A DNA stretch of 64,000 bases from positions 49,251 to 113,250 of IMG/VR virus record IMGVR_UViG_2718218135_000001; one strand, 5' to 3'. The position numbers and the translations under genes are program-made. Positions 1,817 through 58,413 of the stretch are shown here, in pieces (the first letter of the stretch is position 1; every line of letters begins with the position of its first letter). The notes under the pieces were generated by a model. The model saw only the letters and a list, made by a program, of their open reading frames with translations. It ran no database searches and was not told where the DNA came from. Source of the DNA: a virus. Taxonomy: Duplodnaviria > Heunggongvirae > Uroviricota > Caudoviricetes.

Positions 1817-1840
1817 AGGTAAGTAGTTATCTACTTAATA
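1817..1840. promoter_or_regulatory. conserved intergenic motif A copy (AGGTAAGTAGTTATCTACTTAATA)
   Basis: Near-palindromic TAAGTA...TACTTA element recurring in many intergenic regions of this window. Confidence 0.5.
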
Positions 1841-1841
1841 T

Positions 1842-1867
1842 GGGTGGGCTATACGCCCACCTTTTTT
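1842..1867 (+). terminator. rho-independent terminator-like hairpin after capsid gene
   Basis: GGGTGGGC-TATAC-GCCCACC stem-loop followed by TTTTTT. Confidence 0.6.
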
Positions 1868-1880
1868 GTAGGAGCGATAA

Positions 1881-2309
1881 ATGCCAGAACAAAAGATGAA
1901 AATCATGGAGGAGACGTTTGCGGATTTCACAGGGCATATGTGCCGTGCCGGATTCACCAACTCCGTCTCCAACGAGCCTCTGAGCGAGCGCCAGCAGAAC
2001 CATCTTGCGGCTTGCTTCCGGACAGTTCCGTTCACGCAGTCTGTCAGCGTGGAGTCTGTTGCTCTGACTCCTGATTCTGTCTCTGTTGAGAAGGGGAAGT
2101 CAGTCAAATTGCGAGTTGATGTGCAACCGTCAAACGCAACCAATCAAAAAGTCACCTGGACTTCTCAAAATAGCGACAAAGCGACCGTGGATCAGAACGG
2201 TAACGTAGTTGGCGTAGCCGTTGGTACGGCAACCATTGAAGTGGCTTCACATGATGGCAGTCACAAAGCGACTGCGACCGTTGAAGTGACCGCAGCACCG
2301 GCTGCGTAA
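1881..2309 (+). CDS. Big_2 (bacterial Ig-like) domain protein, putative head decoration protein
   Basis: C-terminal region VSVEKGKSVKLRVDVQPSNATNQKVTWTSQNSDKATVDQNGNVVGVAVGTATIEVASHDGSHKATATVEV matches Big_2 domain pattern; RBS GGAGCGATAA. Confidence 0.55.
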   Translation: MPEQKMKIMEETFADFTGHMCRAGFTNSVSNEPLSERQQNHLAACFRTVPFTQSVSVESVALTPDSVSVEKGKSVKLRVDVQPSNATNQKVTWTSQNSDKATVDQNGNVVGVAVGTATIEVASHDGSHKATATVEVTAAPAA

Positions 2310-2352
2310 CCAACATATGGGCAGCATAGCTGTCCATTAAGTGAGAAGAAAA

Positions 2353-2787
2353 ATGAAACCAGCAAAAATTCGTTTATTGGAGCCTCAATTTTTGGGGTAC
2401 ACGGGGATTCTCTGCGGTATCAAGTTTGTAGACGGTATCTCAGTTGCTGAACTGCCATTCGTCGATCAGCAGCGGATTTGTGCTTCCATGCGTGCGACTA
2501 CCGTTGAAGGTAAAAATGTATCTCCTTCTGCCGCGTACAGTAGCCGCAATAACTTGACTGCGGAAGACATTGTCGAGACGCCAGCCCCGGATATTGTGCC
2601 AATGAAACGTGGTGCGGCTGAAACAAAGCCCAAACCGGTACAGCGCTTTACTCGTGAAGAACTGGAGTCGATTGCGGACTGTGAAGGTATTGCGGGTCTT
2701 CGTCAGATCGGCAACCAAATTGGCGTGAAAGCCAAAGGCATCGTTGAAATGATCGAGGGTATCCTGAAAGCACAGGGCGGTGAGTAA
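2353..2787 (+). CDS. hypothetical structural protein (head-tail joining region)
   Basis: ORF in same-strand structural operon; ATG at 2353 preferred over GTG at 2341. Confidence 0.35.
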   Translation: MKPAKIRLLEPQFLGYTGILCGIKFVDGISVAELPFVDQQRICASMRATTVEGKNVSPSAAYSSRNNLTAEDIVETPAPDIVPMKRGAAETKPKPVQRFTREELESIADCEGIAGLRQIGNQIGVKAKGIVEMIEGILKAQGGE

Positions 2788-3620
2788 TGGCACAGATCGA
2801 CACGTACCGTAGCGGGGAAGCCGTTTCCCTGTCGTTTGCATTTAACGTTCTGGATATTGAGTCGGCAACGTATACCGTCAGAGATGGCGCGGGTTCGATC
2901 ATCGTTGATAACGAACCTCTCGATATTACTGAGGGGCAGATGTCCATTCCGGTTGTCGTGTCGGCCGAACACAACCTGCTTGCCGACAAAGAGCGCGATC
3001 TGCGTTACGTCCTCGTCAAAGCGGTGGCATCCGGTCTGACGCATGAAGAGCGCAAGATGTACGTTCTGCTAAATAGCTTCGAGCTGTCTATCCCAGGCCA
3101 GTCATTCGCAACGGTCGCAGACGCCCAGATGCAAGCCATCGACATGCTGAACGGCGACACTCTGTTGGCTGATGGTGACGGGCTGATGCGCAAACGTCTC
3201 ATTGAGGCCACCAGACGCGTCAAAACGCTGCCGTTTTCAATCCGCAAAGTCCTTCGTATCGATTTCGATCGGTACGACCGTCCACAAAACATGCTGAACG
3301 TATATGACGTACCGTGGGGTGCTGACGGGGCATATCGTCACGATCTGATTGATTGGGAGAAGATGACGCAGGATAAATTCGACGAATTCCCTGACTACTT
3401 CAAACAGACATTAATGCTGGCCGTGGTTAATGAAGCCTGCGAAATCGCTAACGGCAATGACGTAGCGGCAGCTCGCGAGGACGGCATCCTGTCTGAATCC
3501 ATTGGTGAAACGACAAATATGTACCGCACCGGCAAAGCGGCAAATTTACATGTGGCTCGCAGTACCTGGAGACTGCTGGTCAGCTACATCAACAACCGCA
3601 TGATTGTTCGCCGTGCGTAA
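2787..3620 (+). CDS. hypothetical structural protein
   Basis: 277-aa ORF, ATG overlaps upstream stop (TAATG); between capsid and tail genes. Confidence 0.35.
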   Translation: MAQIDTYRSGEAVSLSFAFNVLDIESATYTVRDGAGSIIVDNEPLDITEGQMSIPVVVSAEHNLLADKERDLRYVLVKAVASGLTHEERKMYVLLNSFELSIPGQSFATVADAQMQAIDMLNGDTLLADGDGLMRKRLIEATRRVKTLPFSIRKVLRIDFDRYDRPQNMLNVYDVPWGADGAYRHDLIDWEKMTQDKFDEFPDYFKQTLMLAVVNEACEIANGNDVAAAREDGILSESIGETTNMYRTGKAANLHVARSTWRLLVSYINNRMIVRRA

Positions 3621-3717
3621 CGCCAGTCGCATTATTTACTTCTGGTCGAAAGGCTCAAGACGCACAATCGCGCCTTCGCCTGGTAATGCGTGCGGATGCC
3701 AACCACAGGGAGAGTGC

Positions 3718-4062
3718 ATGAACATTTCATGGCAAGCAGAGATGGCGATTTACCGTCTGGGTTCGAAGAATGTCTACGGTGAAGCGCAATTGCAGTTCGT
3801 CAGGAAGACGAACGTCGGTGTCGTTAAGTTTGAACAAAGTAATGAGAAGTCATCGGTACGTGCGGACAGCTCCGGCAGTCGCGGAAAAGCCAATATGGAA
3901 TTGTTCGATGTCGTTCTGGTGGTCCCACTTGAGGCCGCAGTGCAACTTGATGACGTTCTTATTCTGGAGGGGCTAAAGCTGAAGGTATCCAGTGTGCATC
4001 GTCGTTGGGGGTTACGTGGACGCCCTGGTCATCTGGAAGTAGGGGCAAACATATGGGCCTGA
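3718..4062 (+). CDS. hypothetical head-tail joining protein
   Basis: RBS AGGGAGAG before ATG at 3718 (internal start of track ORF 3604..4062); stop overlaps next start (ATGGGCCTGA). Confidence 0.35.
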   Translation: MNISWQAEMAIYRLGSKNVYGEAQLQFVRKTNVGVVKFEQSNEKSSVRADSSGSRGKANMELFDVVLVVPLEAAVQLDDVLILEGLKLKVSSVHRRWGLRGRPGHLEVGANIWA

Positions 4063-4526: not shown

Positions 4527-4527
4527 T

Positions 4528-4914: not shown

Positions 4915-4939
4915 AATAAGTAAATATATACTTACTATT
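4915..4939. promoter_or_regulatory. conserved intergenic motif A copy (AATAAGTAAATATATACTTACTATT)
   Basis: TAAGTA / TACTTA inverted arms; about 45 bp upstream of major tail protein start. Confidence 0.5.
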
Positions 4940-4985
4940 GGCGCCATGAAGGTGCTGATTTAACGGAAAAAGGAGTTTTCCAACA

Positions 4986-5732
4986 ATGTCCAATACCCAT
5001 GTAAAAAACATCAAACTTGGCGCCTGCAAAGTGTCGTTTGGTGGTGTTGATCTGGGTTACACCAAAGGCGGTGTTCAGGTTGAGGTTGCGACCGAAACTC
5101 TGAAAGTTACCGTAGACCAGCTAGGGCAAACCACCATCTCCGAGCTGGTACAGGGCCGTAACATCACTATCACTGCGCCGCTGGCCGAGTCTGTGTTGCA
5201 GAATATGGTCGATCTGATGCCGGGTTCTACCCTGAGTGAAGAAGATAACTCTGTGACCATCACTTCCGCACAGGGCGTCAACCTGATCGACGTAGCTAAA
5301 GAGCTGGTTCTGACCCCGCAGGATACCACCGACTACGTTCTGACCATCCCGAAAGCTGCGACCGCAGGTAACTTCACCATGACCTACCAGTCTGATGATG
5401 TTCGCGTGTTCTCGGTTCAGTTCACCGCTTACCCGGATGACGACGGTATTCTGGGGAAAATGAGCGGCCCAAAGCCGGTTAAATCCGTCTCTATCTCTCC
5501 GGATTCTCCGGAAGTTAAAGCCGGTGAGAGCGTGCAGCTGGCAGCCCAGATCACACCTGCAGATGCCGGCGACAAAACCGGTGTGTGGGAGTCCGACAAT
5601 CAGGAGAAGGCTACCGTTGATCAGACTGGTCTGGTTCGCGGAGTAGCTGAAGGTTCGGCAAATATCTCCTTCACCAGCAATAGCGGCGGCAAGAAAGCGA
5701 CCAAAGCTGTAACGGTTAATTCTGCCGAATAA
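4986..5732 (+). CDS. major tail protein with C-terminal Big_2 domain (lambda gpV-like architecture)
   Basis: RBS AAAGGAG; C-terminal VKSVSISPDSPEVKAGESVQLAAQITPADAGDKTGVWESDNQEKATVDQTGLVRGVAEGSANISF is Big_2-like; followed by G/T-like chaperones and tape measure. Confidence 0.6.
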   Translation: MSNTHVKNIKLGACKVSFGGVDLGYTKGGVQVEVATETLKVTVDQLGQTTISELVQGRNITITAPLAESVLQNMVDLMPGSTLSEEDNSVTITSAQGVNLIDVAKELVLTPQDTTDYVLTIPKAATAGNFTMTYQSDDVRVFSVQFTAYPDDDGILGKMSGPKPVKSVSISPDSPEVKAGESVQLAAQITPADAGDKTGVWESDNQEKATVDQTGLVRGVAEGSANISFTSNSGGKKATKAVTVNSAE

Positions 5733-11416: not shown

Positions 11417-11423
11417 GTATCTG

Positions 11424-11448
11424 GATAAGTAAGTACTAATTTACTATC
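11424..11448. promoter_or_regulatory. conserved intergenic motif A copy (GATAAGTAAGTACTAATTTACTATC)
   Basis: Same TAAGTAAGTA core as other copies; about 50 bp upstream of next start. Confidence 0.5.
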
Positions 11449-11498
11449 ATTGTGGCGCTGACAGGATGTTGGCGCCTTTTTATTTCAAGGAAGAAACA

Positions 11499-18231: not shown

Positions 18232-18255
18232 ATAATAAGTAAGTATATACCTATT
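18232..18255. promoter_or_regulatory. conserved intergenic motif A copy (ATAATAAGTAAGTATATACCTATT)
   Basis: About 45 bp upstream of side tail fibre start. Confidence 0.5.
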
Positions 18256-18256: not shown

Positions 18257-18278
18257 GTGTGGGCAGGGACGCCCACAC
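18257..18278 (+). other. GC-rich hairpin in 5' leader of tail fibre gene
   Basis: GTGTGGGC-AGGGAC-GCCCACAC perfect inverted repeat, no U-tract, immediately followed by AAGGAG RBS. Confidence 0.45.
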
Positions 18279-21990: not shown

Positions 21991-22017
21991 TATATAGTAG
22001 GTAAGTACATACCTACT
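21991..22017. promoter_or_regulatory. conserved intergenic motif A copy (TATATAGTAGGTAAGTACATACCTACT)
   Basis: AGTAGGTA / TACCTACT 8-bp inverted arms; upstream of lysis cassette. Confidence 0.5.
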
Positions 22018-24598: not shown

Positions 24599-24614
24599 GA
24601 AAACAAGTTGTTTC
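24599..24614. promoter_or_regulatory. conserved intergenic motif B copy (GAAAACAAGTTGTTTC)
   Basis: Palindromic AAACAA-N-TTGTTT element about 35 bp upstream of parA-like start. Confidence 0.5.
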
Positions 24615-26493: not shown

Positions 26494-26620
26494 TATTGCA
26501 TCTCTTAGCTACTGACTAATGCGTTCTATTTTACACATAAGTTTTTAATCAATTTTACAGGCTCAAAGTGTAGAGCTTCTGGGTGTCTAAGACGACAAGT
26601 TATGCCTGTTTCTGTATATA

Positions 26621-26648
26621 AATAATAAGTAACTTATTAAATATATAC
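26621..26648. promoter_or_regulatory. conserved intergenic motif A-like palindrome (AATAAGTAACTTATT)
   Basis: AATAAGT-A-ACTTATT perfect inverted repeat in divergent promoter region. Confidence 0.4.
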
Positions 26649-26740
26649 GGAAGCAGGTCTTTTAAAAGACACCCACCAGAACAACTCCCTTCCGTTTCCA
26701 CTTCCCAAAAATATCTCCAGTCGCTATGATTCGCTCACTT

Positions 26741-26763
26741 AGATAAGTAAGTACATACCTATT
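26741..26763. promoter_or_regulatory. conserved intergenic motif A copy (AGATAAGTAAGTACATACCTATT)
   Basis: Matches TAAGTAAGTACATACCTA consensus; upstream of 26776 gene. Confidence 0.5.
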
Positions 26764-27527: not shown

Positions 27528-27542
27528 GAAAACAAATTGTTT
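27528..27542. promoter_or_regulatory. conserved intergenic motif B copy (GAAAACAAATTGTTT)
   Basis: Identical core to copy at 45164; about 20 bp upstream of helicase start. Confidence 0.5.
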
Positions 27543-37687: not shown

Positions 37688-38500
37688 ATGAAAGAAGAAT
37701 TTCAGAAGTTAGTCTGCGACATCATCGACAAATCCGGCGTAGAAATTGATACAGAAGAGCGCCAGAAGATTATCGACGAGGCGATCCAAACTGCGCTGGA
37801 GCATATCGCCACGTCCGTGAGCGCCGCACCTCTTTCGGAAGGCTCGAAATACATGCAGGTCTGGGTTCGTTTTGGAGAGTCCCCGGAGTTGCCAGGTGTT
37901 AAGCAGAAACGCGCGGCACTTGTGGCGTTCTCTCGCGAGATGAAAGACGCAACGGTCGAAGTGAGTACCGGTGCATGGTACGACGGTCGCATTGTCTACA
38001 CTAATCAGACTGTCTACACCAATCAGACTGTGTGCGATGAAGGTGAACGGTTTGAGGATATTGTCGACGCAACTCTTCGCACGCTCAAAGTCAGAGCTGG
38101 TGTGGCGGATGACCCGTCCATCGCGGCGTTCCTGAGTATTGTCGAACAGTCTGAAGTTACCGAGCGCGTAACAGATCTGACAACTCCACCTGGTTTGCTG
38201 GAATTGGTGGTCAGTGGCGATATCAAAAAAGCCGTTGAGCGCATTCGTGAGGTGGAATACGGCATTATCTGCGATATGTGCCGCAGCGACTTAGACCTGG
38301 TGCGCATCATTGTCGACGCGGGTCAGGCATGTGACGGAGTACTCGCCAGTTTTGCAGGGCAAGTGGCTCGTCTGGCCAACGAATTACCCATGATTAAACA
38401 AGAAGCCAAATCCTACGCCGTTCATCGTACCAACGATTTACTGGACCCATACCGGTTCGAAGCTGCTCAGGACAAAATGACTGGCTGGGCGACCTGGTAA
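37688..38500 (+). CDS. hypothetical protein
   Basis: 270-aa acidic ORF with AGGAG RBS; contains 18-bp tandem duplication (VYTNQT x2). Confidence 0.4.
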   Translation: MKEEFQKLVCDIIDKSGVEIDTEERQKIIDEAIQTALEHIATSVSAAPLSEGSKYMQVWVRFGESPELPGVKQKRAALVAFSREMKDATVEVSTGAWYDGRIVYTNQTVYTNQTVCDEGERFEDIVDATLRTLKVRAGVADDPSIAAFLSIVEQSEVTERVTDLTTPPGLLELVVSGDIKKAVERIREVEYGIICDMCRSDLDLVRIIVDAGQACDGVLASFAGQVARLANELPMIKQEAKSYAVHRTNDLLDPYRFEAAQDKMTGWATW

Positions 38501-38550: not shown

Positions 38551-38570
38551 AATAAGTAAGTACAAGATTA
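38551..38570. promoter_or_regulatory. conserved intergenic motif A copy (AATAAGTAAGTACAAGATTA)
   Basis: TAAGTAAGTA core; between terminator and next start. Confidence 0.45.
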
Positions 38571-38581
38571 CGGTTAGAAGC

Positions 38582-39092: not shown

Positions 39093-40415
39093 ATGGAAAA
39101 ACTGATCGCCCTAAAGCACAAGCTGGATGCTATTAAAACGATGGGAACCAACGCCAAGAAAGAGGCGCTGGCCAATCTGGATGAATTTGAACAGAGCATG
39201 GTCTCGCTAATGCTCAATCCATTCATTCGATTCGGTGTGAAGAAGTACAAAGTGGCCGAGCCACTCGATACTTCCGTACCCAGCGACCAGAAGGTAGTAG
39301 ATCTGCTGGAGAAGCTGGCAGCGCGCGAACTGACCGGGAACATCGCTATTGCTGCTGTCGAATCACTCGTTGCCTCGATGTGCGCTGACGGGCAGGACGT
39401 GTTTCGTCGCTTCCTGCTGAAAGATCCGAAAGCCGGTGTCGGCATCAGCCTGTGCAACAAGGTGTTCGAAAACCCAATTCCGAAGTTTGAGGTACAGCTG
39501 GCGTCTCCGTACAAGGAGAAAGGCGACAAATACCCATTTAAACCAAATCCAAAGGCCAAGTGGCCAATGATCGGCAGTCTCAAACTCGATGGTCTCCGGG
39601 TTATCTGCGAAGTCATCGTGGACGAGGGTGAGGTCAATTTCCTGACGCGCACCGGCAATCCGATTACGTCACTCGATCACCTTAAACCAGCCATGCTGGA
39701 GCGGAGCAGACTCTCCGGCTTCAATCACATCTTCTTCGATGGAGAGGGCACTGCAGGTACATTCAACCAGTCAGTGTCGGCGCTTCGTAAGAAGAACGTG
39801 AAAGCCATTGGTGCCGTTTACCACATTTTCGATTTCTTCTTACCGGAGTGGCGTGCTCAAGCAAAAAGCAAAGAGTACCTGAAGACCGGTATGAAGCTGA
39901 AAGAGCGCCTGGCTATGCTGGTGGCGTTGTTCCGCAACACTTGCGTGGAAGATTATGCGCAAGATATCCACCTTCATCCGTTCTACATCATCCATAGCCA
40001 CGAAGATTTCATCGAACGTTTCATGAAGCGACTGGACGAGAATGAAGAGGGAGAGATGGGCAAAGATCCGGATTCAGTTTACGAGTTCAAACGTACCCGC
40101 AGCTGGTGGAAGCTGAAAGACGAGGATTCAGAAGACGGTGAAATCATCGACTTCGAGCCTGGCGATCCGGATTCTGGATTTGCGCATACGCTAGGCAAGA
40201 TAGTGATTCGTCTGGAGAACGGCGTCATCGTTCGTGCCAGCGGTATCAAGCATAAATACCTGGATGAAATCTGGAACAATCAGGAGAAGTATCGTGGACG
40301 CATCGTTGAGGTTCACTGCCATGAGAAAACGCCAGATGGTAGCTTGCGTCATCCACGTCTGAAGTGGCCTAAATGTCTTCGAGATACCGAAGATCGTATT
40401 GGAGATAAAGAATGA
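39093..40415 (+). CDS. ATP-dependent DNA ligase
   Basis: Motif I KLDGLR, motif III FFDGE, motif V-like WWKLK; GGAGG RBS. Confidence 0.65.
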   Translation: MEKLIALKHKLDAIKTMGTNAKKEALANLDEFEQSMVSLMLNPFIRFGVKKYKVAEPLDTSVPSDQKVVDLLEKLAARELTGNIAIAAVESLVASMCADGQDVFRRFLLKDPKAGVGISLCNKVFENPIPKFEVQLASPYKEKGDKYPFKPNPKAKWPMIGSLKLDGLRVICEVIVDEGEVNFLTRTGNPITSLDHLKPAMLERSRLSGFNHIFFDGEGTAGTFNQSVSALRKKNVKAIGAVYHIFDFFLPEWRAQAKSKEYLKTGMKLKERLAMLVALFRNTCVEDYAQDIHLHPFYIIHSHEDFIERFMKRLDENEEGEMGKDPDSVYEFKRTRSWWKLKDEDSEDGEIIDFEPGDPDSGFAHTLGKIVIRLENGVIVRASGIKHKYLDEIWNNQEKYRGRIVEVHCHEKTPDGSLRHPRLKWPKCLRDTEDRIGDKE

Positions 40416-40591
40416 TGCTCGGCTGGATGTTTGTATTTTTAGTCGTCGGCATTGTTATCGGAAGTCTGGTTATGTCCAGCTGTATCCACGATTACGTAAA
40501 AGCCGGTGTCATGCAAAGGCGAGGTCGTATTTATCGCATAGTAGATATCACGGACACACTGAAGGAGATTAAGGATGAGCATGTTAAGTAA
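40412..40591 (+). CDS. small membrane protein (59 aa)
   Basis: ATG overlaps ligase stop; one TM helix; C-terminal RIYRIV motif shared with ORF at 40787. Confidence 0.25.
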   Translation: MMLGWMFVFLVVGIVIGSLVMSSCIHDYVKAGVMQRRGRIYRIVDITDTLKEIKDEHVK

Positions 40592-40787
40592 ACGAGAGAA
40601 GGAAACCCTGCGTGAAATCAGCAAGTGGAAGGAGTTCTACGCCAACTGGAAGCCGAAGACCAGAGCCAAACTGGAGCGCATGAATCTTGTCGCCAACGTT
40701 TCTCCAAAGGGATGTATTGAGAACTATCAACTGACTGAAAAAGGTTATTTGTTGTTGCAGCAATTGACTGAGGCGGGGGCATACTGA
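40575..40787 (+). CDS. small hypothetical protein (70 aa)
   Basis: GAAGGAG RBS; overlapping small-gene array. Confidence 0.3.
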   Translation: MSMLSKREKETLREISKWKEFYANWKPKTRAKLERMNLVANVSPKGCIENYQLTEKGYLLLQQLTEAGAY

Positions 40788-40939
40788 TGATTCCATACAT
40801 CATTTTATCATTCACTGGTGGCGTGGGCCTCGGCCTCGCAATCTGCCGCGCCCTGGTCCAGCAGGAACTGAAAACCAAAACACTTCGTGTCGGTAAGCGT
40901 GTGTATCGGGTTGTTCACGAGACGGGAGTGCGAAAATGA
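40787..40939 (+). CDS. small membrane protein (50 aa), paralog-like of 40412 ORF
   Basis: Starts ATGATTCCATAC; TM helix then RVYRVV motif; stop overlaps next start. Confidence 0.2.
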   Translation: MIPYIILSFTGGVGLGLAICRALVQQELKTKTLRVGKRVYRVVHETGVRK

Positions 40940-41241
40940 GCAATTTGACTTCCTTCGACTGGTGGCTGGCAACCTACCTTGTTGCGGCCGGCTTCGGATT
41001 TGCCTTTTACGTTGGTCAGTTAATCGTAAAGCTACTGCTGATAAGATTCGCCAGCGATAAACGCATAGACGACGGTCTGTGGCGTCTGGGGCCCCTGTTA
41101 GAGACGCATTACGGCGAACTCAAGGAAAACGAAACTATCACTATTCAAGCGAAGCGTTTTACCGCCATCATCACGAGAACTTCGGAACAAAAGGGGAGCC
41201 TGATCAAAAAGATAGCAACTAAACGCATCACAGATAGATAA
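40936..41241 (+). CDS. small membrane protein (101 aa)
   Basis: N-terminal TM helix (WWLATYLVAAGFGFAFYVGQLIV). Confidence 0.35.
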   Translation: MSNLTSFDWWLATYLVAAGFGFAFYVGQLIVKLLLIRFASDKRIDDGLWRLGPLLETHYGELKENETITIQAKRFTAIITRTSEQKGSLIKKIATKRITDR

Positions 41242-41258
41242 GTATTTACTTACCTATC
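41233..41258. promoter_or_regulatory. conserved intergenic motif A copy, extended palindrome (GATAGATAAGTATTTACTTACCTATC)
   Basis: 12-bp inverted arms with one mismatch; at the edge of the non-coding tRNA region. Confidence 0.5.
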
Positions 41259-41984: not shown

Positions 41985-42059
41985 GATGGTGTAGCTCAGT
42001 GGTAGAGCGGTTGACTGTTAATCAACTGGTCGGTGGTTCGAGTCCACCCACCATCGCCA
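41985..42059 (+). tRNA. tRNA-Asn (anticodon GTT)
   Basis: Cloverleaf by hand: acceptor GATGGTG/CACCATC, D-arm GCTC..GAGC, anticodon stem GTTGA/TCAAC with loop CTGTTAA, T-arm GGTGG-TTCGAGT-CCACC, discriminator G, CCA encoded; differs from E. coli tRNA-Asn as I recall it. Confidence 0.75.
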
Positions 42060-42313: not shown

Positions 42314-42829
42314 ATGACGATTATGGAGTCTATCGTGAAATTTAAAATCCAGCATTTGCAGGCAGCAGTGGCACTGGTTCTTGCCAGTATCCAGCCGCAA
42401 CCCAAAGCGGTTGCGTGTCAGCCTACGATTGTAGAACGGGTTTATGAGATGGGCGCTAGAGTCAACAAAACCGACATCAGTGATCTTACAGCTGCTCTCA
42501 ATGAATTGGCTAAAGAACTGCGTTCAAGCCGCGCTGAACTTGCTCGTTATGCTGACACTGACTTCTTTGCTGCTATCAAAGTAGCGGAAGAAATTAAGAA
42601 TCAAACTATTCATGTAGCCGGTATCGCAGAATCTTTTGTTTTGATGTTACCTGAAAAAGACGTCATCATGTCTTACGACAAAAACACTGTTGAGTTTGCG
42701 TTTTTTAAAGCTATTAAAATGGTCAGTATTGCGACCAAAAACTATCTCAATCTGATTGATCAGATTACACACACTTCTGTAGTGCGTGACTCTGGTGTCA
42801 ACCTTTTAGCCATGAACCATTCTAGCTGA
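42314..42829 (+). CDS. hypothetical protein
   Basis: 171-aa ORF after terminator; TAGAAT -10-like element upstream. Confidence 0.4.
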   Translation: MTIMESIVKFKIQHLQAAVALVLASIQPQPKAVACQPTIVERVYEMGARVNKTDISDLTAALNELAKELRSSRAELARYADTDFFAAIKVAEEIKNQTIHVAGIAESFVLMLPEKDVIMSYDKNTVEFAFFKAIKMVSIATKNYLNLIDQITHTSVVRDSGVNLLAMNHSS

Positions 42830-43128: not shown

Positions 43129-44232
43129 ATGAAAAACACTTTTGATAAAGCACGCGCAGCAGAAAACACCTCTAGAGAAGCCATCGAGTATCTCGAACGC
43201 GCTTCCGGTTTGTCAGCAGTGTCGACCACCAATTTCGACGGTGACATGTCGTTTTCTTCCGCATTCATGTTATTCACTCGCTTATCTTTGCTGATAACGA
43301 GACGTCGACCTGAAATAGCTGTTCATTGTATTTTGATACATGTAATGCCGCATATCTGTGAAGTAAAAGTAAGTGACATTAGTAGGGTTTTAGTCAACCA
43401 GCTGGTGAACCCATTAATACTTGAGGGCAAGATCGTCCAGGGCAGACGTGTGTTCTCGCTGATGAAGCAGTTTCTCAGTTGGTGTGCATTTCAGGGCTTA
43501 ATTGATACATCCCCATTGAACGATATGTCGCTTAACAGAGTAGCCGGTGGCGCGAAGCCCACGCCGCGCGAGCGCAAACTGACCGACGCAGAGGTCTGGG
43601 TCTTTTGGAATGTATGGGACTACTTCAACGTATGTGAGGGTACAAAGTGGGCGGCCAGATTATGCCTTGTAGCGGCCAGACGACCAGATGAAGTGCTCCG
43701 AGCTAAAAGATCAGAATTCAACCTCGAATATAATTTATGGAATCAAGGAACGAGGAATAAATCGGCTCGCCAGCACTCGTTACCATTAAGCCCGCTAATG
43801 CGCAAATGTGTTGAGGAGCTGATCAAATACGGAAAAGGCAGCCAGTGGCTTGTTCCTTCAAACAAGAAACAGGGTGAGGATGTGCCAATGTCTAAGGTGG
43901 CCATATCACAGGCGTTGAGAAGGATTTTAGAACGTCCAGAGTTGATGGAGCTTGAGCCATTTACTCCCCGAGATTTGCGTCGTACTGCGCGTAGTTACTT
44001 CCCCGCGTTAGGCATAAGTCAGGAGGTATCCCGCAAAATTATGAACCACAGTCTTGAGGGGATAGATCGAGTATACGATCGACACGATTATATAGACGAG
44101 ATGCGAGACGCCTTAAACAGTTTTTCGGCGTACATCGCATCAATCGTAGAGAAACAGGATTTAGAGGAGATAGATCATAAGTTCAAGGGAGATCGACTCG
44201 CTACTGAGCTAATCCGTGTAAATTTCTCATAG
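43129..44232 (+). CDS. tyrosine recombinase / integrase
   Basis: C-terminal catalytic region RDLRRTARSYF ... MNHSLEGIDRVYDRHDY (R..H..R..Y pattern). Confidence 0.65.
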   Translation: MKNTFDKARAAENTSREAIEYLERASGLSAVSTTNFDGDMSFSSAFMLFTRLSLLITRRRPEIAVHCILIHVMPHICEVKVSDISRVLVNQLVNPLILEGKIVQGRRVFSLMKQFLSWCAFQGLIDTSPLNDMSLNRVAGGAKPTPRERKLTDAEVWVFWNVWDYFNVCEGTKWAARLCLVAARRPDEVLRAKRSEFNLEYNLWNQGTRNKSARQHSLPLSPLMRKCVEELIKYGKGSQWLVPSNKKQGEDVPMSKVAISQALRRILERPELMELEPFTPRDLRRTARSYFPALGISQEVSRKIMNHSLEGIDRVYDRHDYIDEMRDALNSFSAYIASIVEKQDLEEIDHKFKGDRLATELIRVNFS

Positions 44233-44616
44233 CGACTTGATTGCCTCAACAACCCGCTCCGACGCACCACGTTGGTCACCGAAACGTCGACGGAAGGCTT
44301 CCAGAACTAGTTTTTCATCTTTAGTCAGAGGGGCTGTGCCTTCGTCGCGAAAAAACTCTAACAGCTCTGGATGACGCTCTTCCAGCACCATTAGCATCAA
44401 TCGGACCGAATCGGCATCCAATGCTTTAGCCAACGCTCTGACCTTGTCGATCGGAAGCGGGATTTTGCCGCTCTTGATAAGTGAAAGATTGTTAGGATTT
44501 TTATAGCCTGCTTCTTTCGCGATGGTCGCCTGGCTTTTCGGAGAAATCGCGATTAAAGCGTCAATGTAAGCAGCGTAGCGACCTACTTTAGCTTCTGTTA
44601 TTTCGTTGGTAGCCAT
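44227..44616 (-). CDS. HTH transcriptional regulator (candidate repressor)
   Basis: HTH-like QATIAKEAGYKNPNNLSLIKSGKIP; divergent from 45198 operon with motif B in the shared region. Confidence 0.45.
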   Translation of the reverse strand: MATNEITEAKVGRYAAYIDALIAISPKSQATIAKEAGYKNPNNLSLIKSGKIPLPIDKVRALAKALDADSVRLMLMVLEERHPELLEFFRDEGTAPLTKDEKLVLEAFRRRFGDQRGASERVVEAIKSL

Positions 44617-44872
44617 AATTATCAACCTGCGTGTTTTGATTTTATATGGTAAGTGCTTACTGATATTACATCAAAGGTTAGTGTTGTAAAGACTTATCTA
44701 TTTTTTTTCGTAGAGTTATTGACCGCAAAAGGCTTCATTAATAGACAACTATCTAAAAAACAACTCATTTAAGAACTTAAAACTAAGTTGTATTTGATAT
44801 ATAAGTATTCCGTATTGATACAATAGGTAGTAGTATTGCAAGGCATTTACGTGTTCAGTTGGATGATATGAA

Positions 44873-45163: not shown

Positions 45164-45179
45164 GAAAACAAATTGTTTT
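45164..45179. promoter_or_regulatory. conserved intergenic motif B copy (GAAAACAAATTGTTTT)
   Basis: Palindrome 19 bp upstream of VWA gene ATG at 45198. Confidence 0.5.
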
Positions 45180-45197: not shown

Positions 45198-47426
45198 ATG
45201 TCCAAAAAAACCACCAAAGCTGTACTGAAAGAGGTGCAGGATTTTCGCGACTGTGTAAAACGAGTTGTAGCGATGCTTTCAGGTAAACAGATACCTGTTG
45301 CAGAACGAGGCAATGAAGCATATGTCCGCTATAACCGGCGCGGCGAACCAGTGCTGGTAAACATCCCATCTATACCGGACGACGCGTCGCCAACCCTCAT
45401 GAACGCAGTGCGTGGTTTTCTCGACCATGAGGTGGCCCATATTCTCTTTACTGAACCGAAAGTCGCAATGCAGATGCGCGAAAGAGGAAAGGCTCCGTCT
45501 ACGGGGCTTTGGAATGCGCTGGAAGACGTTTTTATTGAACGCAGAATGGGGCAGGTCTTTAACGGAACCCGGCGTAATTTACTTGCAACACAGAGTCTGG
45601 TTATCGACAAATACTTCAGGAATAAAGTACCAGAAGCGGTTTTAGCCTGTCACGGAGACCAGCGTGAATTGTTTTTGAAATTCTTCCTTTGCCCGGTCGT
45701 CCGCGCCTGGGATGGACAAAGCCCCTTCATCGATTTTATGGAAGAACACTGGCGCCTTATCGAGAGGCCGGTAGCCTTACTAAAGGAGCATGGTATAGAC
45801 GTGGCCGTTCGCAATATGTCGAACACTGAGGATTGCGTGAAGGTCGCTGCTGCTATAGCCCAAATCATGCAGGATATGAAAGACAAGCCAGAGGGCAAAT
45901 TACCAGAACTTAAATCATCTGCCAGAAAGCCGTCGGAGAGCAAAGACGAGTCCGAGGAAACGCCAGAATCAGGTGACGAGCCGTCTCATGGTGACTCTGC
46001 ATCTAAGCCTGCCAAAGGCGAAGGCGATGACAAGGAAGAACGAGAAGATGATGCATCAGAAGAGGAAGATTCTGGGGATTCCGATTTGCCTGATTCGTTA
46101 GATAAGGACTTACCTACACACGTTAAAGATATTAGTGATACAGAAAGTAAATATACAGAAGCAGGCCACGAAGAGTCAGGAGACACCCCAGAATCCGATG
46201 CTATCGGCATGAAATCAAGTGACTCTGACACTGATGGTGATGACGGTGAGGACTCCGATACTGATCGTGGGGAAACTGAAGAAGACGTCGAAGGCAAAAA
46301 AAATAAAGATGGTGCGGAAGTGCCCAAAGACAGTGAGTCTGGCTTTGTTCCTGCGCCGGATGAAATGACTCTGGAGGAGGCGCTAAAGGCGCTCGACGAG
46401 ATGGAAGACGGAATCGGTGAAATGACCGAAGACGCACTGTCGGCCACCATCAGCAAAGAGCTTATGAGCGTCTCACCTTCTGATTATCGGCCATACGATC
46501 GATCATACGACTTTATCGGGTTGATTGATGGAGCCGAAGAGCATGTGAAGCGCACCAGAAAGACGTTCGGTGCAATACCAATGCACTCACCAGTCGACCG
46601 CTACCGTATGGTGCCAGAAGGCAGAAAACTCTTTGAACTGAAAATCGAAAAACATCTGTCTGCAGGCGTTTCTTCGACGCTGGCCAAAGACCTGGAGCGG
46701 GCCATCGCCAGCCGCAACCGAGTTCAGTTTATACCTGGTCAGAGGCGTGGGCGGATACATGGCGCGAGCCTGTATCGTCTGGCAATGAACGACGACCGAG
46801 TGTTCCGCAAGAAGGAAGACCATAGAGCGGTGAACGCGTGTGTCCAGCAGGTCATCGACTTGTCCGGCTCAATGGATGGCGTGAAGATTCAACTGGCCCT
46901 AGCCAGTGCCTATACCATTGCGGATGCTTTAGATCGTATCAATGTCCCCAACATCATCACCGGCTTTACCACGTTCGGTAGCCCAGATTATGAAACCAGG
47001 TCGAAGCGCGGGTTTACACGCTTCGAGGCGCTCATGCTGCCCATTATCAAAAACTGGAATGAGAAAGCAAACTCTCCAGAGATCCGTGCTCGCATGGGAT
47101 GCGTATGTGAGACGTTCCCACTGCTCAATAACGTCGATGGTGAGAGTGTCGCGCAACTGGCTACCCTGTTTGCAGGGCGAATGGAGGACAAAAAGATCAT
47201 GCTGGTTATGAGTGATGGGGAGCCATGTGCTACAGGTAGTGGATTCCATCAGCATTTACGAACCGTCACCAAAGAAATTGAGACCTTGAGCGACATCGAA
47301 CTGATGGCTATCGGCATTCTGACCGACGAACCACGGCGTTACTACAAAAATTACGCACTGGTTAACAGTGTTGAAGAGCTAGGGCCGTCAGTCGTCACTG
47401 AGTTATCTCGTATCATTCTTGGGTAA
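45198..47426 (+). CDS. VWA-domain protein (CobT-like) with long acidic tract
   Basis: MIDAS motif DLSGSMDG; Asp/Glu/Ser-rich region about 45950-46400; ATG at 45198 preferred. Confidence 0.55.
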   Translation: MSKKTTKAVLKEVQDFRDCVKRVVAMLSGKQIPVAERGNEAYVRYNRRGEPVLVNIPSIPDDASPTLMNAVRGFLDHEVAHILFTEPKVAMQMRERGKAPSTGLWNALEDVFIERRMGQVFNGTRRNLLATQSLVIDKYFRNKVPEAVLACHGDQRELFLKFFLCPVVRAWDGQSPFIDFMEEHWRLIERPVALLKEHGIDVAVRNMSNTEDCVKVAAAIAQIMQDMKDKPEGKLPELKSSARKPSESKDESEETPESGDEPSHGDSASKPAKGEGDDKEEREDDASEEEDSGDSDLPDSLDKDLPTHVKDISDTESKYTEAGHEESGDTPESDAIGMKSSDSDTDGDDGEDSDTDRGETEEDVEGKKNKDGAEVPKDSESGFVPAPDEMTLEEALKALDEMEDGIGEMTEDALSATISKELMSVSPSDYRPYDRSYDFIGLIDGAEEHVKRTRKTFGAIPMHSPVDRYRMVPEGRKLFELKIEKHLSAGVSSTLAKDLERAIASRNRVQFIPGQRRGRIHGASLYRLAMNDDRVFRKKEDHRAVNACVQQVIDLSGSMDGVKIQLALASAYTIADALDRINVPNIITGFTTFGSPDYETRSKRGFTRFEALMLPIIKNWNEKANSPEIRARMGCVCETFPLLNNVDGESVAQLATLFAGRMEDKKIMLVMSDGEPCATGSGFHQHLRTVTKEIETLSDIELMAIGILTDEPRRYYKNYALVNSVEELGPSVVTELSRIILG

Positions 47427-47442
47427 TAGCTTTACCCTTAAA

Positions 47443-47465
47443 AATAAGTAACTACTTACTATACA
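47443..47465. promoter_or_regulatory. conserved intergenic motif A copy (AAAATAAGTAACTACTTACTATA)
   Basis: AAGTA / TACTT arms; about 55 bp upstream of AAA+ gene. Confidence 0.5.
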
Positions 47466-53033: not shown

Positions 53034-53142
53034 TTACATCAGCTTATCTACGTCAGCCCTCAAGTTCTTCAGCAAGCCAGCTCCACCGCCTGATTCCAAC
53101 ATGATAGAATTGATATACTAAAATAAGTATATAGATAACATT

Positions 53143-53574: not shown

Positions 53575-53583
53575 TTTATGCTA

Positions 53584-53608
53584 GATAGTAAGTAAGCACT
53601 GATCTATC
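53584..53608. promoter_or_regulatory. conserved intergenic motif A copy (GATAGTAAGTAAGCACTGATCTATC)
   Basis: GATAG...CTATC outer arms plus TAAGTAAG core; upstream of SSB-like gene. Confidence 0.45.
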
Positions 53609-53693
53609 ATTCTTCTCGCTCGAAAGAGCCACGAACAAACGAACGCCCAATGCGCATAGCGCCAATGGCCACAATCACAACAAGGAGAAATAC

Positions 53694-55715: not shown

Positions 55716-55981
55716 TGCTGAAATCCATCATTAATGGCGGGGCAACTACGCCAACCATGCTGGCAAAGGAGATTGTTTTCTGCCACGGCGAGCACGCTGT
55801 GGTAGCGCTGCCGAACATTCTGGGCGCTGCTGGCATTTCTGCTACTGAGCGTGAGTTCGCGCTGGTCAGTGAGCAGGTCGTGAAGATCATCGCTCGCGTC
55901 GCCAAACACCTGAACCACGACGCAATCAAGTTTGACGAAGCCGCTGCTTCGAAGCGAATCAACGAATCAAAAGGAGCCTAA
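55715..55981 (+). CDS. hypothetical small protein
   Basis: ATG overlapping FEN stop; 88 aa. Confidence 0.3.
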   Translation: MLKSIINGGATTPTMLAKEIVFCHGEHAVVALPNILGAAGISATEREFALVSEQVVKIIARVAKHLNHDAIKFDEAAASKRINESKGA

Positions 55982-55983
55982 TC

Positions 55984-58323
55984 ATGGCAAAAGGCAAATC
56001 CGCACTGGCACTGGCGCTGAAAAAGAAAATCGGCAGCAATGACGAGATTCAGAAGGTCTCCCACTGGATTGACTCCGGTTTCCCTCCACTGAACAAAGCC
56101 ATTTCCGGACGTTACGACGGTGGTTTTCCGTGTGGGCGTATCGTTGAAGTCTTCGGGCCACCAAGCGCGGGGAAATGTGTTACCGCAGACACCATGCTGC
56201 TGACGGAGCGTGGAATTGTAACAGTGAAAGAACTGTTTGAGATTGAGGGGCACAAAGCAACATGCACTACTCGCGATGTAGAGCATAACGTTGGACTCAT
56301 CAATGAAAATGGCGTGATAGAGAAGACCTCACACCTGACATGGAACAACCGTCGCAAATTCAAGCGCATTAAGCTGGCATCAGGGGGTTACATCGAGGCT
56401 ACGTTCCGTCACCCAATTCGTGTGGTTGACGACTTAGGCAATATCGTCTGGCGGTATGCTGAAAAAATCAGTGTAGGCGACACGATTCCTTCAATGGTTG
56501 GCACACATCAATTCGGCGATCAGCACTTGGATGCCAATATCGCAAAACTGATGGGCTATTTAATTGCTGACGGATACGTGGCCTCTGAAAATTCTGTGCA
56601 TTTTTCTAACACAGATCCATTCATCAAGGATGAGTACTACCGCCTCATTTCGCTGGTATCAGACAAGATGCCAGTTACGAGAAAACATAACGGCTCGGAA
56701 GACCATGTGCTGTTTAGCAAAGAGGTGCGTTCGCTGCTTTTTAAAGAATATGGTCTGGAGTATGAGAAAGCTGCTGGCAAGCAGGTTCCGTTGAGTGTGC
56801 GTCGCGCCAATAGCGAGGCTCAAATTGCATTCCTTCGCGGCTACTTTGAGCTGGAATGCCACGTCAATGATGGTCGCTGCATTGAGGTTGTGAGCGCGAG
56901 TGGGCTGCTGCTACAGCAAATTCGCCTCATGCTCCTGAATCTGGGGATTACGTCAACTATCTCTGAAAAACACGTCGCAGGTTATAAAAACATATATTAC
57001 CGGCTGTCATTCAGTGGCTCTAACTACGACCTTTTCCTGTCAACGATTGGGTTCGAGTCTCCGGCTCGTTTAGCAGTGGCAACCAAACGGGACATTAGTT
57101 TTGACCGCACTTATTTAGGCTACGTTCCGCACATCAGCGGCTTAGTGAAATCACTCTACGAGTCACTCACCAAGACCTCTCGTAAAGACTACGTTCTGGT
57201 AGATCACGTTATTGGCCGCGGCGATCGTGTCGGAATAGACAAACTGCGAGAAATCTATGTCTCCTTCATTGGCAGAAAGAATCGTTTTAACGAGCATCTG
57301 TTTGCACAACTGGCAGCGGTAATTGACTCTAACTTGTTCTACGACGAAGTCGTGGCTATTGAGGAAGGTGAAGCACCAACGTTCGACGTAGCGATGCCGG
57401 AAACACACTCTTTCTGGTCTAACGGGATTATCAGCCACAACACATTCCTCGCGACGGCTGCGATGGTGTCAGCACAAAAACAGGATGGTCTGGCCGTATT
57501 CCTTGACCACGAAAACAGTTTCGACGTTGGTCTGGCGGTAGCGAACGGACTGAACGCCGACGAAGACGACGGTCAGTGGGTCTACAAACAGCCGGATACC
57601 TTCGAAGACTCCGTAGAGCTGATCGGCACAATCCTCAAGCTGGTGCGCGACGAAGAGCTTATTCCGGAAACAGCCCCTATCTGCATCGTAGCCGACTCTC
57701 TGGCGTCGATGGTTCCGAACTCGAAGGCTGAGAAGTTCGACAAGATGGCAGAAGGCACTGCGAAGGACAAAGATCAGCTGAACATGAACGACAACACGGC
57801 GCTGGCGCGCGCGACAAGTGCGAACTTCCCTACTCTGGCGCTTTGGGCGCGTAAGTACAACGCGTGCATCATCTTCTTGAACCAGGTGCGTACCAAAATT
57901 GGTGTGATGTTTGGCGATCCGACTACGTCTCCGGGTGGCGACTCTCCGAAGTTCTACGCGTCGGTGCGCATCCGTCTGGGTGCATCCGTCATGAAGGATG
58001 GCAAAGAGAAGATCGGACAGGACGTTGGCGCCGAGTGCATTAAAAACAAAGTCGCGCCTCCGTTTGGCAAATGCTCATGGAAATTCTACTTCGACCCGAC
58101 TCGCGGGCTGGACGTCGTCGAGTCTCTGGTTGAATACATGCTGGAGGAAGGATACCTGCCCAAGAGCGCCAGCGGGCGTGTGGAAATTGGCGAGAAGAAA
58201 TACACCAAATCACAGATCGTCGAGATGTACCGGGAGAAGCCATTAGCTGAAATCATTGCTGCGTTACAGGCAATAGATGACAGGCGCGAGAAGACATCAC
58301 CGACAGATGAATTAGAAGATTAA
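55984..58323 (+). CDS. RecA-family recombinase (UvsX/Sak4-like) precursor containing an intein
   Basis: Exteins give GPPSAGK|T Walker A, FLDHENSFD, IVADSLASM, PGGDSPKFYASVRIRL RecA-like motifs; AAAAGGAG RBS. Confidence 0.75.
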   Translation: MAKGKSALALALKKKIGSNDEIQKVSHWIDSGFPPLNKAISGRYDGGFPCGRIVEVFGPPSAGKCVTADTMLLTERGIVTVKELFEIEGHKATCTTRDVEHNVGLINENGVIEKTSHLTWNNRRKFKRIKLASGGYIEATFRHPIRVVDDLGNIVWRYAEKISVGDTIPSMVGTHQFGDQHLDANIAKLMGYLIADGYVASENSVHFSNTDPFIKDEYYRLISLVSDKMPVTRKHNGSEDHVLFSKEVRSLLFKEYGLEYEKAAGKQVPLSVRRANSEAQIAFLRGYFELECHVNDGRCIEVVSASGLLLQQIRLMLLNLGITSTISEKHVAGYKNIYYRLSFSGSNYDLFLSTIGFESPARLAVATKRDISFDRTYLGYVPHISGLVKSLYESLTKTSRKDYVLVDHVIGRGDRVGIDKLREIYVSFIGRKNRFNEHLFAQLAAVIDSNLFYDEVVAIEEGEAPTFDVAMPETHSFWSNGIISHNTFLATAAMVSAQKQDGLAVFLDHENSFDVGLAVANGLNADEDDGQWVYKQPDTFEDSVELIGTILKLVRDEELIPETAPICIVADSLASMVPNSKAEKFDKMAEGTAKDKDQLNMNDNTALARATSANFPTLALWARKYNACIIFLNQVRTKIGVMFGDPTTSPGGDSPKFYASVRIRLGASVMKDGKEKIGQDVGAECIKNKVAPPFGKCSWKFYFDPTRGLDVVESLVEYMLEEGYLPKSASGRVEIGEKKYTKSQIVEMYREKPLAEIIAALQAIDDRREKTSPTDELED
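56176..57441 (+). other. intein with LAGLIDADG homing-endonuclease domain, inserted in RecA P-loop
   Basis: Begins with Cys (CVTADTMLL), ends SHN followed by +1 Thr; LAGLIDADG-like blocks LMGYLIADGYV and FLRGYFELECH; length 1266 nt = 422 codons in frame. Confidence 0.7.
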
Positions 58324-58328
58324 TTTTC

Positions 58329-58353
58329 AGGCGTCCGAATGGACGCCTTTATA
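58329..58353 (+). terminator. rho-independent terminator after recombinase gene
   Basis: AGGCGTCC-GAAT-GGACGCCT followed by TTTAT. Confidence 0.6.
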
Positions 58354-58413
58354 CCTTGAAAATATATAATCACTTACTTATCATCTACGCACAATAGCCA
58401 CATAGGAAAACAC

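Follow-up and report, generated by a model that had tools for sequence, protein, structure and literature searches.

A 20-bp palindrome recurs in the short intergenic gaps of the DNA analyzed in this study, a 64-kb stretch (hereafter the window; 48% G+C) of the virus record IMGVR_UViG_2718218135_000001, and its copies are probably the dispersed operators of a dimeric helix-turn-helix (HTH) repressor encoded by the same phage-plasmid, most likely a 132-aa XRE-type protein. The original prediction had offered two readings of the motif, a phage-specific promoter class, for example for a phage-encoded RNA polymerase or sigma factor, and the operator of a global regulator. The operator reading is preferred here because the site is symmetric at the DNA level, is present in ~30 backbone copies, was re-specified in step with the repressor, occurs at the repressor gene, and accompanies well-formed promoters that are silent in lysogens. 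On the best reading, a new promoter class is not favored, and the regulon belongs to a known kind, that of the dispersed-operator prophage repressors.

The palindrome and its occurrence in SSU5-type phage-plasmids

Judged by its identities, the window is part of an Escherichia coli SSU5/pHCM2-type phage-plasmid: it is 99% identical to the E. coli plasmid pCUVET18-789.1 (NZ_CP115313), while its aligned parts share ~92% identity with Salmonella phage SSU5 and 80–85% with Escherichia phage Cyrano. Its gene content comprises genes for the head, the tail and lysis, genes for partition and replication, a cargo island with fimbrial and toxin-antitoxin genes, the integrase gene and the repressor gene, cobT/cobS-like genes, dnaE, genes for recombination and a type I restriction-modification system. 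Four annotated relatives were examined, namely NZ_CP115313, Cyrano, pJN2-26 (a Klebsiella phage) and NZ_CP096896 (Acinetobacter), and the enterobacterial set also included Klebsiella pneumoniae pVH1-2-1, of which 100 kb was scanned. For the promoter and hairpin analyses, 109 sites were pooled from five genomes.

Alignment of the copies gave a core unit of 20 bp, ATARGTA-N6-TACYTAT (ATARGTA-AGTACT-TACYTAT), with the consensus ATAAGTAAGTACTTACCTAT, that is, two TAAG repeats on either side of a central TA. The original prediction of a near-palindrome of ~22 bp was thus right about the symmetry but not about the length of the unit, as the core has 20 bp and is bordered by weakly palindromic, A/T-rich flanks (wwR...Yww). 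In a position-frequency table of 68 sites, conservation fades ~3 nt outside the core and the ±60 nt around the motif contain no other conserved column, therefore neither a -35 nor a downstream -10 hexamer stands at a fixed place. Positions 4 and 17 of the core combine freely, A/C mismatches being found in 5–7 of 22–23 sites per genome, which places the constraint on the DNA rather than on an RNA stem. On these combinations, an RNA hairpin or RNase III site was rejected, and so was a mobile repeat of the REP or MITE type, because conservation does not extend more than ~3 nt past the core. Of the two halves of the motif, the upstream one is somewhat better kept (45 vs. 21 sites; p = 0.0025 in Cyrano).

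The copies exceed what base composition predicts. With up to 2 mismatches allowed, the 11-mer ATAAGTAAGTA, of which the window holds 5 exact copies, was matched 40 times vs. 12.2 ± 3.4 times in shuffled sequences, and none of 100 shuffles reached 40. A symmetrised weight matrix found 13 loci in the window at a score of at least 16, while 100 second-order Markov simulations gave 0.06 on average; the matrix was derived from the same sites, which makes this comparison partly circular, unlike the 11-mer test. Further, the motif surfaced among the most over-represented words of pJN2-26 and pVH1-2-1 with no prior model. All 14 positions listed in the original prediction hold a copy, except that the sequence counted at 26621 proved to be part of a different inverted repeat of ~55 bp (CCTGTTTCTGTATATA...TATATACGGAAGCAGG), which recurs separately in the relatives.

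In all, 13–16 motif loci are present in the window. The sites, including two weak ones, are as follows:

1815..1838 (core 1815/1819-1838), motif between the major capsid gene and the next head gene; register ambiguous by 4 nt, CTAGGTAagtagtTATCTAC or GTAAGTAgttatcTACTTAA
4916..4935, motif ATAAGTAaatataTACTTAC, upstream of the tail gene starting at 4986
11425..11444, motif ATAAGTAagtactAATTTAC, between tail genes M and L; spacer of the sigma70-like TGGATA-17-TATCAT (11422-11450)
18235..18254, motif ATAAGTAagtataTACCTAT, upstream of the tail-fibre gene (ATG 18299), followed by a hairpin at 18257-18278
21997..22016, motif GTAGGTAagtacaTACCTAC, upstream of the holin/lysis genes; the Cyrano site 26657 precedes the holin gene
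26743..26762, motif ATAAGTAagtacaTACCTAT, 13 nt before the first gene of the helicase/primase block (GTG 26776)
37627..37646, motif ATAAGTAgatactTACTTAT, before the 270-aa gene at 37688; arms perfect, centre deviant; the Cyrano orthologue is CYRAN_34
38552..38571, motif ATAAGTAagtacaAGATTAC, left half alone strong; after a terminator and 10 nt before ATG 38582
41238..41257, motif ATAAGTAtttactTACCTAT, at the head of a non-coding stretch leading to tRNA-Asn (41985-42059)
44645..44664, minus strand, weak variant ATCAGTAAGCACTTACCATA, in front of the repressor gene and over its promoter; conserved in Cyrano and pJN2-26
46098..46117, weak copy TTAGATAaggactTACCTAC, within the cobT-like gene; conserved between genera (pJN2-26 91932; pMT1 locus L095)
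47440..47463 (core 47440/47444-47463), motif between the cobT-like and cobS-like genes; register ambiguous by 4 nt
53123..53142, motif ATAAGTAtatagaTAACATT, left half alone strong; abuts ATG 53143 of the UvsY-like gene
53588..53607, motif GTAAGTAagcactGATCTAT, before the gp32-like single-stranded DNA-binding protein (SSB) gene; spacer of TAGATA-17-TATCAT (53582-53610)
58362..58381, motif ATATATAatcactTACTTAT, the copy first described as reversed; after a terminator; spacer of TTGAAA-17-TATCAT (58356-58384; 10/12 matches)

The complete genomes of five lineages hold ~28–33 loci each, with ~30 in NZ_CP115313, Cyrano and pJN2-26 and 28 in the 100 kb of pVH1-2-1. When the scan was compared with the annotation, nearly all copies fell into short gaps separating backbone genes of the same direction, with every functional class represented. 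Among the structural genes, these are the terL-portal gap (26 bp, nearly filled by the motif), the 3' end of portal, the gap between capsid and the next head gene, and sites at tail genes, the tail fibre and holin; the copy behind the capsid gene has orthologous copies in NZ_CP115313, Cyrano, pJN2-26, pVH1-2-1 and Acinetobacter. Others are located at the helicase block, the ligase block, cobT-cobS, uvsY-ssb, recA, sbcD, the ribonucleotide reductase genes, thyX, a dam-like methylase gene and parB. The motif is absent from the cargo islands, both the fimbrial/toxin-antitoxin island (30.2-37 kb; no site from 26.8 to 37.6 kb) and the restriction-modification island (beyond 58.4 kb). The distance from the motif end to the start codon is 0–86 nt with a median of ~42, so that the placement upstream of genes noted originally was borne out, while the range of 20–60 bp was too narrow.

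The motif is spread widely in the family. A perfect consensus was found on 73 stretches of viral contigs, many of them on contigs of 100–111 kb with the 3446-bp spacing of the terL-portal and capsid sites. In Yersinia pestis pMT1 (NC_004835.1 44832-85215, L095), a repressor homologue with 85% identity is kept, together with at least 8 motif copies in 40 kb.

Some features beside the sites were also observed. In pMT1, motif copies flank the caf1 (F1 capsule) insertion and several insertion sequence (IS) elements. The consensus centre AGTACT is a ScaI-type hexamer (e.g., window 11432-11437 and 26750-26755), which is kept in the enterobacterial and Acinetobacter variants and degenerate in pVH1-2-1, and the element encodes several DNA methyltransferases. 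The weak copy within the cobT-like gene may act as an operator inside the gene or may have survived by chance in an acidic repeat region. The recA-like gene (window 55984-58323) encodes 779 aa and has a LAGLIDADG homing endonuclease annotation in the near-identical plasmid; as the recombinase of pJN2-26 and pMT1 is ~357 aa, an intein or homing-endonuclease insertion in the window gene is suggested. The long inverted repeat at 26621 has the form CCTG(C/T)TTCTGTATAT, an AT-rich stretch of ~25 nt, ATATAC(A/G)GAAGCAGG and then TCTTTT, with 3–4 copies per genome: window ~26604-26660 (26621 being the AT-rich centre), Cyrano 31160-31215, 78085-78140 and the genome end, and pJN2-26 15285 and 74858. 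It looks like a large terminator or another structured site.

A candidate repressor and a coupled change in Acinetobacter

The candidate binder of the palindrome is the product of the following gene:

44227..44625, minus strand, 132-aa XRE/Cro-C1-type HTH protein, beside the integrase gene; homologue of Cyrano CYRAN_45 ("putative repressor")

This protein, which would be the dimeric HTH regulator envisaged in the original prediction, has no match of its own in Pfam. It matched PHROG 8 "transcriptional regulator" with E = 4e-11, and its homologues are labeled XRE family in their sources. An AlphaFold2 model with a mean pLDDT of 82 showed a five-helix XRE/Cro-C1 N-terminal domain and three C-terminal helices. 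In a Foldseek search with this model, C.AhdI, 434 Cro, lambda cI and SinR were aligned at 1.8–2.2 Å over 61–66 residues, at weak E-values of 0.007–0.09, and the 434 repressor and Stl were superposed at ~2 Å over ~65 residues. No S24 (LexA-like) cleavage domain was found in the 132-aa protein.

In all lineages examined, the repressor gene is adjoined by motif-like sites, several in Acinetobacter and a full one in the enterobacterial lineages; together with the symmetry of the motif and the silence of the genes behind it, this supports the operator alternative of the original prediction. The predicted promoter of the repressor gene, TTTACA-16-TAATAT (44690-44663; a consensus match), is conserved in the window, Cyrano and pJN2-26, and in all three its -10 hexamer ends in the first two bases of the variant palindrome ATCGGTAAGYACTTACCA. 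The variant palindrome would span -8 to +12 of the predicted promoter, overlapping the -10 hexamer and the predicted start site; half-sites occur further along, toward the divergent 70-aa gene. In pVH1-2-1, two weak motif copies were found 32 and 59 bp upstream of the repressor homologue.

Homologues of the 132-aa protein were detected by tblastn on ~1000 plasmids, including some of 40% identity on Acinetobacter baumannii plasmids of ~107–114 kb. One of these Acinetobacter elements, NZ_CP096896, is syntenic with the SSU5-type elements, and its over-represented words assemble into ATCAGTCAGTACTGACTGAT, a palindrome of the same 20-bp architecture with TCAG in place of TAAG in each of its four sub-repeats. 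About 33 copies of ATCAGTCAGTACTGACTGAT stand in orthologous places (the terL-portal gap, behind capsid with the terminator, and before holin), and several lie in the divergent region beside the Acinetobacter repressor homologue. Both half-sites were thus changed together in the distant lineage.

At the entry to the predicted recognition helix, K/E-N-P/A-N is found in the four lineages of the TAAG type (E. coli/Cyrano, pJN2-26, pVH1-2-1 and the metagenomic relative L015, 29% identical) and K-R-P-N in Acinetobacter. Site sequence and repressor therefore co-vary, TAAG to TCAG with K-N-P-N to K-R-P-N, in a single switch event. The pairing of Asn with A and of Arg with G is a familiar recognition pattern, which may apply here. 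A third specificity class, sought among the remote repressor homologues L016, L017, L019, L020 and L021, did not emerge, their contexts being non-SSU5-like or holding too few sites.

Other proteins of the element were considered as binders. No support was found for a FljA-like protein (PF03614), for a 186-aa excisionase-like DNA-binding protein, which is absent from Cyrano, or for the 270-aa CYRAN_34-like protein, which is without informative homology. All enterobacterial relatives examined encode the FljA-like protein (174 aa, "repressor of phase-1 flagellin", PF03614, E = 6e-69), the gene being located outside the window at NZ_CP115313 83443-83967 (L002:33443-33967) and corresponding to Cyrano CYRAN_114; host flagellin expression may be the target of the protein.

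Expression of motif-associated genes in Cyrano lysogens

In strain LF82, Cyrano is maintained as a plasmid at ~5.5 copies per cell, and virions are released after ciprofloxacin treatment. A per-gene table of normalized RNA-seq reads from LF82, with a median of 9.8, was used to follow the motif-associated genes (PMC9928086, S1 Table). In these lysogens, the repressor gene CYRAN_45 reached 96 vs. the median of 9.8, while the genes directly after motif copies, with the exception of CYRAN_34, ranged from 5 to 22 (PMC9928086). The silent genes include those located behind good sigma70-like promoters, TTGAAA-17-TATGAT and TTGATA-17-TAACAT.

In the same table, CYRAN_43, a hypothetical gene (Cyrano 40268-40822, minus strand), reached ~7000 normalized counts, ~720 times the element background (PMC9928086). 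An abundant small RNA may be hidden in it; at the counterpart place the window has a differently oriented open reading frame, 42314-42829.

Promoter-like hexamers and hairpins at the sites

Promoter elements around the motif were assayed on the pooled sites. Sigma70-type matches of at least 9/12 in which the motif fills the 16–18-bp spacer were found 22 times in the orientation of the gene and twice in reverse. In such promoters, either the motif start (ATA) completes the -35 hexamer or the motif end (TAT) begins the -10 hexamer, which lies at motif positions 18–23 or 21–26; examples are TTGAAA-17-TATGAT within the portal gene and TTGATA-17-TACTAT before the ribonucleotide reductase genes. The directional matches trace to 5–6 orthologous loci that are conserved across genomes. 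In the window, 3–4 of the 13 sites are promoter-like, and an independent scanner reported 11422-11450, 53582-53610 and 58356-58384. The original statement that the motif does not resemble sigma70 promoters accordingly holds for most sites, but at about one fifth of them the motif appears as the spacer of a recognizable sigma70-like promoter. With a permissive weight matrix (score >4), 48/109 sites were positive in the forward and 35/109 in the reverse direction, compared with 8% of random positions; because so many score well even when reversed, much of the promoter-likeness is intrinsic to the palindrome.

Two more general promoter arrangements were tried and rejected. A -10 hexamer ending at motif position 2 (nAnAAT) scored alike in both orientations (1.49 vs. 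1.11, p = 0.71), so it is a by-product of the A/T flanks, and it is clear only in the promoter of the repressor gene itself. A late promoter of the P1 Lpa type, with a dyad at -22 and a downstream -10, did not fit either, as no conserved -10 follows the motif and several copies are too close to the start codon or ribosome-binding site.

A second recurrent palindrome, (ag)AAAACAAnTTGTTT(aa), was observed at window 24601-24613, 27530-27542 and 45166-45178, 15–35 nt before start codons, and in 9–12 copies per complete relative (e.g., Cyrano 82, 29259, 32080 and 93165). It precedes parA, a dnaB-like helicase gene, cobT, the small terminase gene and several small genes; ~10 nt upstream of it stands a -10-like hexamer (GATAAT, TAGTAT or TATTAT), with a T-rich -35 region further up. 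The parA copy is active in lysogens and the other copies are not. This palindrome appears to mark either a promoter-plus-operator class of its own or a class of 5'-leader hairpins.

Strong hairpins, defined as -9 kcal/mol or lower within 40 nt of the motif, were found after the motif at 22/109 sites and before it at 5/109. Those after the motif start within ~20 nt, mostly 1–12 nt past it, and many have a T-run. The original prediction had placed the copies often right after a terminator, which applies to only 2 of 13 window sites (38552 and 58362). Behind the capsid gene, the order of stop codon, motif, terminator and ribosome-binding site is kept from E. coli to Acinetobacter (site 40516). 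This order fits a simple promoter reading poorly, except where transcription would start inside the 5' arm of the hairpin, and the spacing from motif to hairpin is compatible with such a start site at many sites. The first three hairpins of the window are as follows:

1842..1862, plus strand, terminator-like hairpin with T-run (GGGTGGGCTATACGCCCACCT TTTTT), directly 3' of the motif and followed by the ribosome-binding site
4937..4959, plus strand, GC hairpin without T-run, adjoining the motif; -10.6 kcal/mol (pl 45748), with G-U pairs that work in plus-strand RNA only
11454..11476, plus strand, terminator-like hairpin with T-run, 9 nt past the motif

Together with 18257-18278 and the orthologues, these make up a group of GC-rich hairpins 1–12 nt past the motif in the structural-gene region (1842-1862, 4937-4959 and 11454-11476 being the other members). 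In Cyrano, they show compensatory changes (GTGTGGGC...GCCCACAC vs. TGGCGGGC...GCCCGCCA), only some of them have a T-run, and their position is tightly coupled to the motif.

Proposed mode of action

In the plasmid-prophage state, the repressor would occupy all copies and keep nearly all virus genes silent. At the subset of copies in which the palindrome appears to form the 16–18-bp spacer of a sigma70-type promoter, overlapping the -35 and/or the -10, a bound dimer would exclude host RNA polymerase, while at copies without a promoter, such as that in the 26-bp terL-portal gap, it would act as a roadblock to read-through. The weaker copy over the start site of the repressor gene would provide negative autoregulation. 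Upon induction, loss of the repressor would open all units at once.

Several observations weigh against this proposal. The tie to the 132-aa protein consists of gene neighborhood and one evolutionary switch (phylogenetic n = 1), so the protein is named as the probable binder only. Silence of the downstream genes in lysogens fits activator-dependent promoters equally, and CYRAN_34 is expressed in lysogens (44 vs. the median of 9.8) despite a strong copy directly upstream (PMC9928086). A convincing -35 is absent at most sites, 18% scoring above the random 90th percentile vs. 10% by chance, and much of the promoter-likeness is a product of the palindrome itself. Moreover, the better-kept upstream half hints at a directional function, which a pure dimer site does not need.

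It is conceivable, at a clearly lower probability, that the palindrome and the following hairpin form an insulating module, through which one small repressor, re-programmable from TAAG to TCAG by a single Asn-to-Arg change, gates ~30 self-insulated units, or else that the palindrome is the target of an unrecognized activator and so does define a new promoter class. In an insulating module, the predicted start would lie ~10–13 nt past the motif, inside the 5' arm of a terminator that starts 1–12 nt past the motif; read-through from upstream would be terminated, whereas the module's own transcripts, being without the 5' arm, would escape termination.

Alternative explanations

The promoter class proposed originally, in which a phage factor (an activator, a sigma-like protein or an RNA polymerase) starts ~30 lytic units and the lysogens are silent for want of this factor, is doubtful. 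It would account for copies 0–86 nt before start codons, for silent downstream genes in lysogens, for flanking hexamers that favor the gene direction (22 vs. 2) and for the better conservation of the upstream half, and the second promoter-associated palindrome in the same genomes would fit temporal classes. However, the motif is a full dyad, unlike the known promoters of sigma factors or single-subunit polymerases, and it shows neither a directional element like those of the T7-like, T4 late or phiEco32-like classes nor a conserved -10 hexamer or other partner element at a fixed distance. Neither an RNA polymerase nor a sigma factor is annotated in the four relatives, a result at annotation level that leaves room for a divergent sigma factor among the hypotheticals. 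The strong hairpin within ~20 nt at 22/109 sites would abort transcripts begun upstream of it, and no more than 0–13 nt separate several copies from the start codon. Early-type genes (replication and nucleotide metabolism) and late-type genes (head, tail and lysis) share the motif, so it does not mark a temporal class, and an activator should be needless where the sigma70 hexamers are good and the spacer has the optimal 17 bp. That the copies are pure roadblocks of the mycobacteriophage "stoperator" type, at which only elongating polymerase is stopped in lysogens and no promoters are involved, is unlikely, although it would explain why a recognizable -35 hexamer is missing at most copies and why tiny intra-operon gaps such as terL-portal are filled, and the copy number and intergenic placement match those of L5-type stoperators (PMC9283540, PMC6550527). 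The directional excess of motif-spacer sigma70-like promoters at 5–6 independent conserved loci speaks against it, and stoperators, which are asymmetric, depend on their orientation, a property that a palindrome does not have. This alternative also overlaps with the dispersed-operator explanation, which already includes a roadblock at promoter-less copies.

Functions outside transcription were given far less weight. The copies might serve as centromere-like sites for two ParB-like proteins, as packaging or replication signals, or as recombination hot spots at module boundaries, but this is very improbable. The element does encode two ParB-like proteins and ParA, one copy is directly upstream of parB (Cyrano 105107), and palindromes of such size are typical of parS or OB sites, as for KorB of RK2. 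In the plasmid state, the very state in which partition or silencing would require such a protein, the two ParB-like genes read at background (5.0 and 9.5; PMC9928086), and the copies are evenly spread rather than clustered near the par genes. They also avoid the cargo and hold fixed places relative to gene starts, which are kept between genera despite the re-specified sequence. Least credible of all is a role at the RNA level, in which an AU-rich hairpin in polycistronic transcripts would be a processing site or the target of a translational repressor. In its favor, the motif is intergenic and palindromic, it often adjoins a second, GC-rich hairpin with strand-specific G-U pairs, and the element encodes a FljA-like protein, a family whose members bind mRNA. 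Yet it is the primary sequence that is conserved and not the pairing, an A-C mismatch at positions 4/17 being as frequent as a pair; the stem would have only ~8 AU-rich pairs; and the base changes in Acinetobacter are identical at all copies, as expected of protein recognition on DNA.

Comparison with known systems

Among known systems, gp71 of mycobacteriophage L5 and Cluster A acts at ~30 stoperators, mostly in short intergenic gaps of early and late operons (PMC9283540, PMC6550527). As proposed here, a single repressor has ~30 dispersed sites, one of them at the early promoter of L5, and the site sequence diverges along with the repressor between immunity groups. L5 stoperators are asymmetric 13-bp sites bound by a monomer in one orientation, whereas the present site is a 20-bp palindrome with symmetric flanks and a mild half bias only, which points to a dimer as the binder. 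By description, gp71 uses two domains (PMC9283540), while the window protein has a single predicted XRE-type HTH. A further difference from L5 is that about one fifth of the copies here appear to be built into sigma70-like promoters.

The C1 protein of P1 is the master repressor of a phage-plasmid, autoregulates, and acts at dispersed operators that overlap many lytic promoters; in all these respects the system proposed here would resemble it. The operators of P1 are asymmetric and 17 bp long, and its late structural genes use the activator Lpa and late promoters of their own, whereas here the one motif stands before head, tail and lysis genes as well. In the Streptomyces phage phiC31, a conserved inverted repeat is bound by the repressor at many intergenic loci near promoters or terminators, an arrangement like the one proposed here; the host, sequence and repressor family are different, and phiC31 integrates into the chromosome instead of being a plasmid prophage.

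The cI/Cro proteins of lambda, 434 and P22 and the C proteins of restriction-modification systems have the five-helix XRE/Cro-C1 fold that is predicted for the 132-aa protein, and these systems also have palindromic operators over a divergent promoter pair beside the repressor gene. They differ in having 3–6 operators in one control region, compared with ~30 across 100 kb here, and the candidate protein differs from them in being without a LexA-like (S24) cleavage domain. KorB of the IncP-1 plasmid RK2, a ParB family member, represses many operons from 12 OB palindromes dispersed over the replicon. The likeness lies in a plasmid-encoded regulator and a palindrome dispersed over the replicon at many operons; here, in contrast, the ParB-like genes are silent in the plasmid state and the candidate is an XRE-type HTH protein.

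Neither the motif nor the maintenance of lysogeny in SSU5-type elements was found described in papers mentioning SSU5 or in a search with the motif sequence.

Significance for the SSU5/pHCM2 family

SSU5/pHCM2-type phage-plasmids are common in clinical Enterobacteriaceae and Acinetobacter and carry resistance and virulence cargo; the family includes Salmonella Typhi pHCM2, the backbone of Yersinia pestis pMT1, Klebsiella plasmids and many resistance-carrying plasmids. For these elements, the palindrome supplies a regulon map of ~30 sites together with a candidate master repressor, and it offers a natural specificity switch, TAAG with Asn vs. TCAG with Arg. Such a map would help to predict the inducibility of the elements, their immunity groups, and the expression of cargo located between operator-bounded units.

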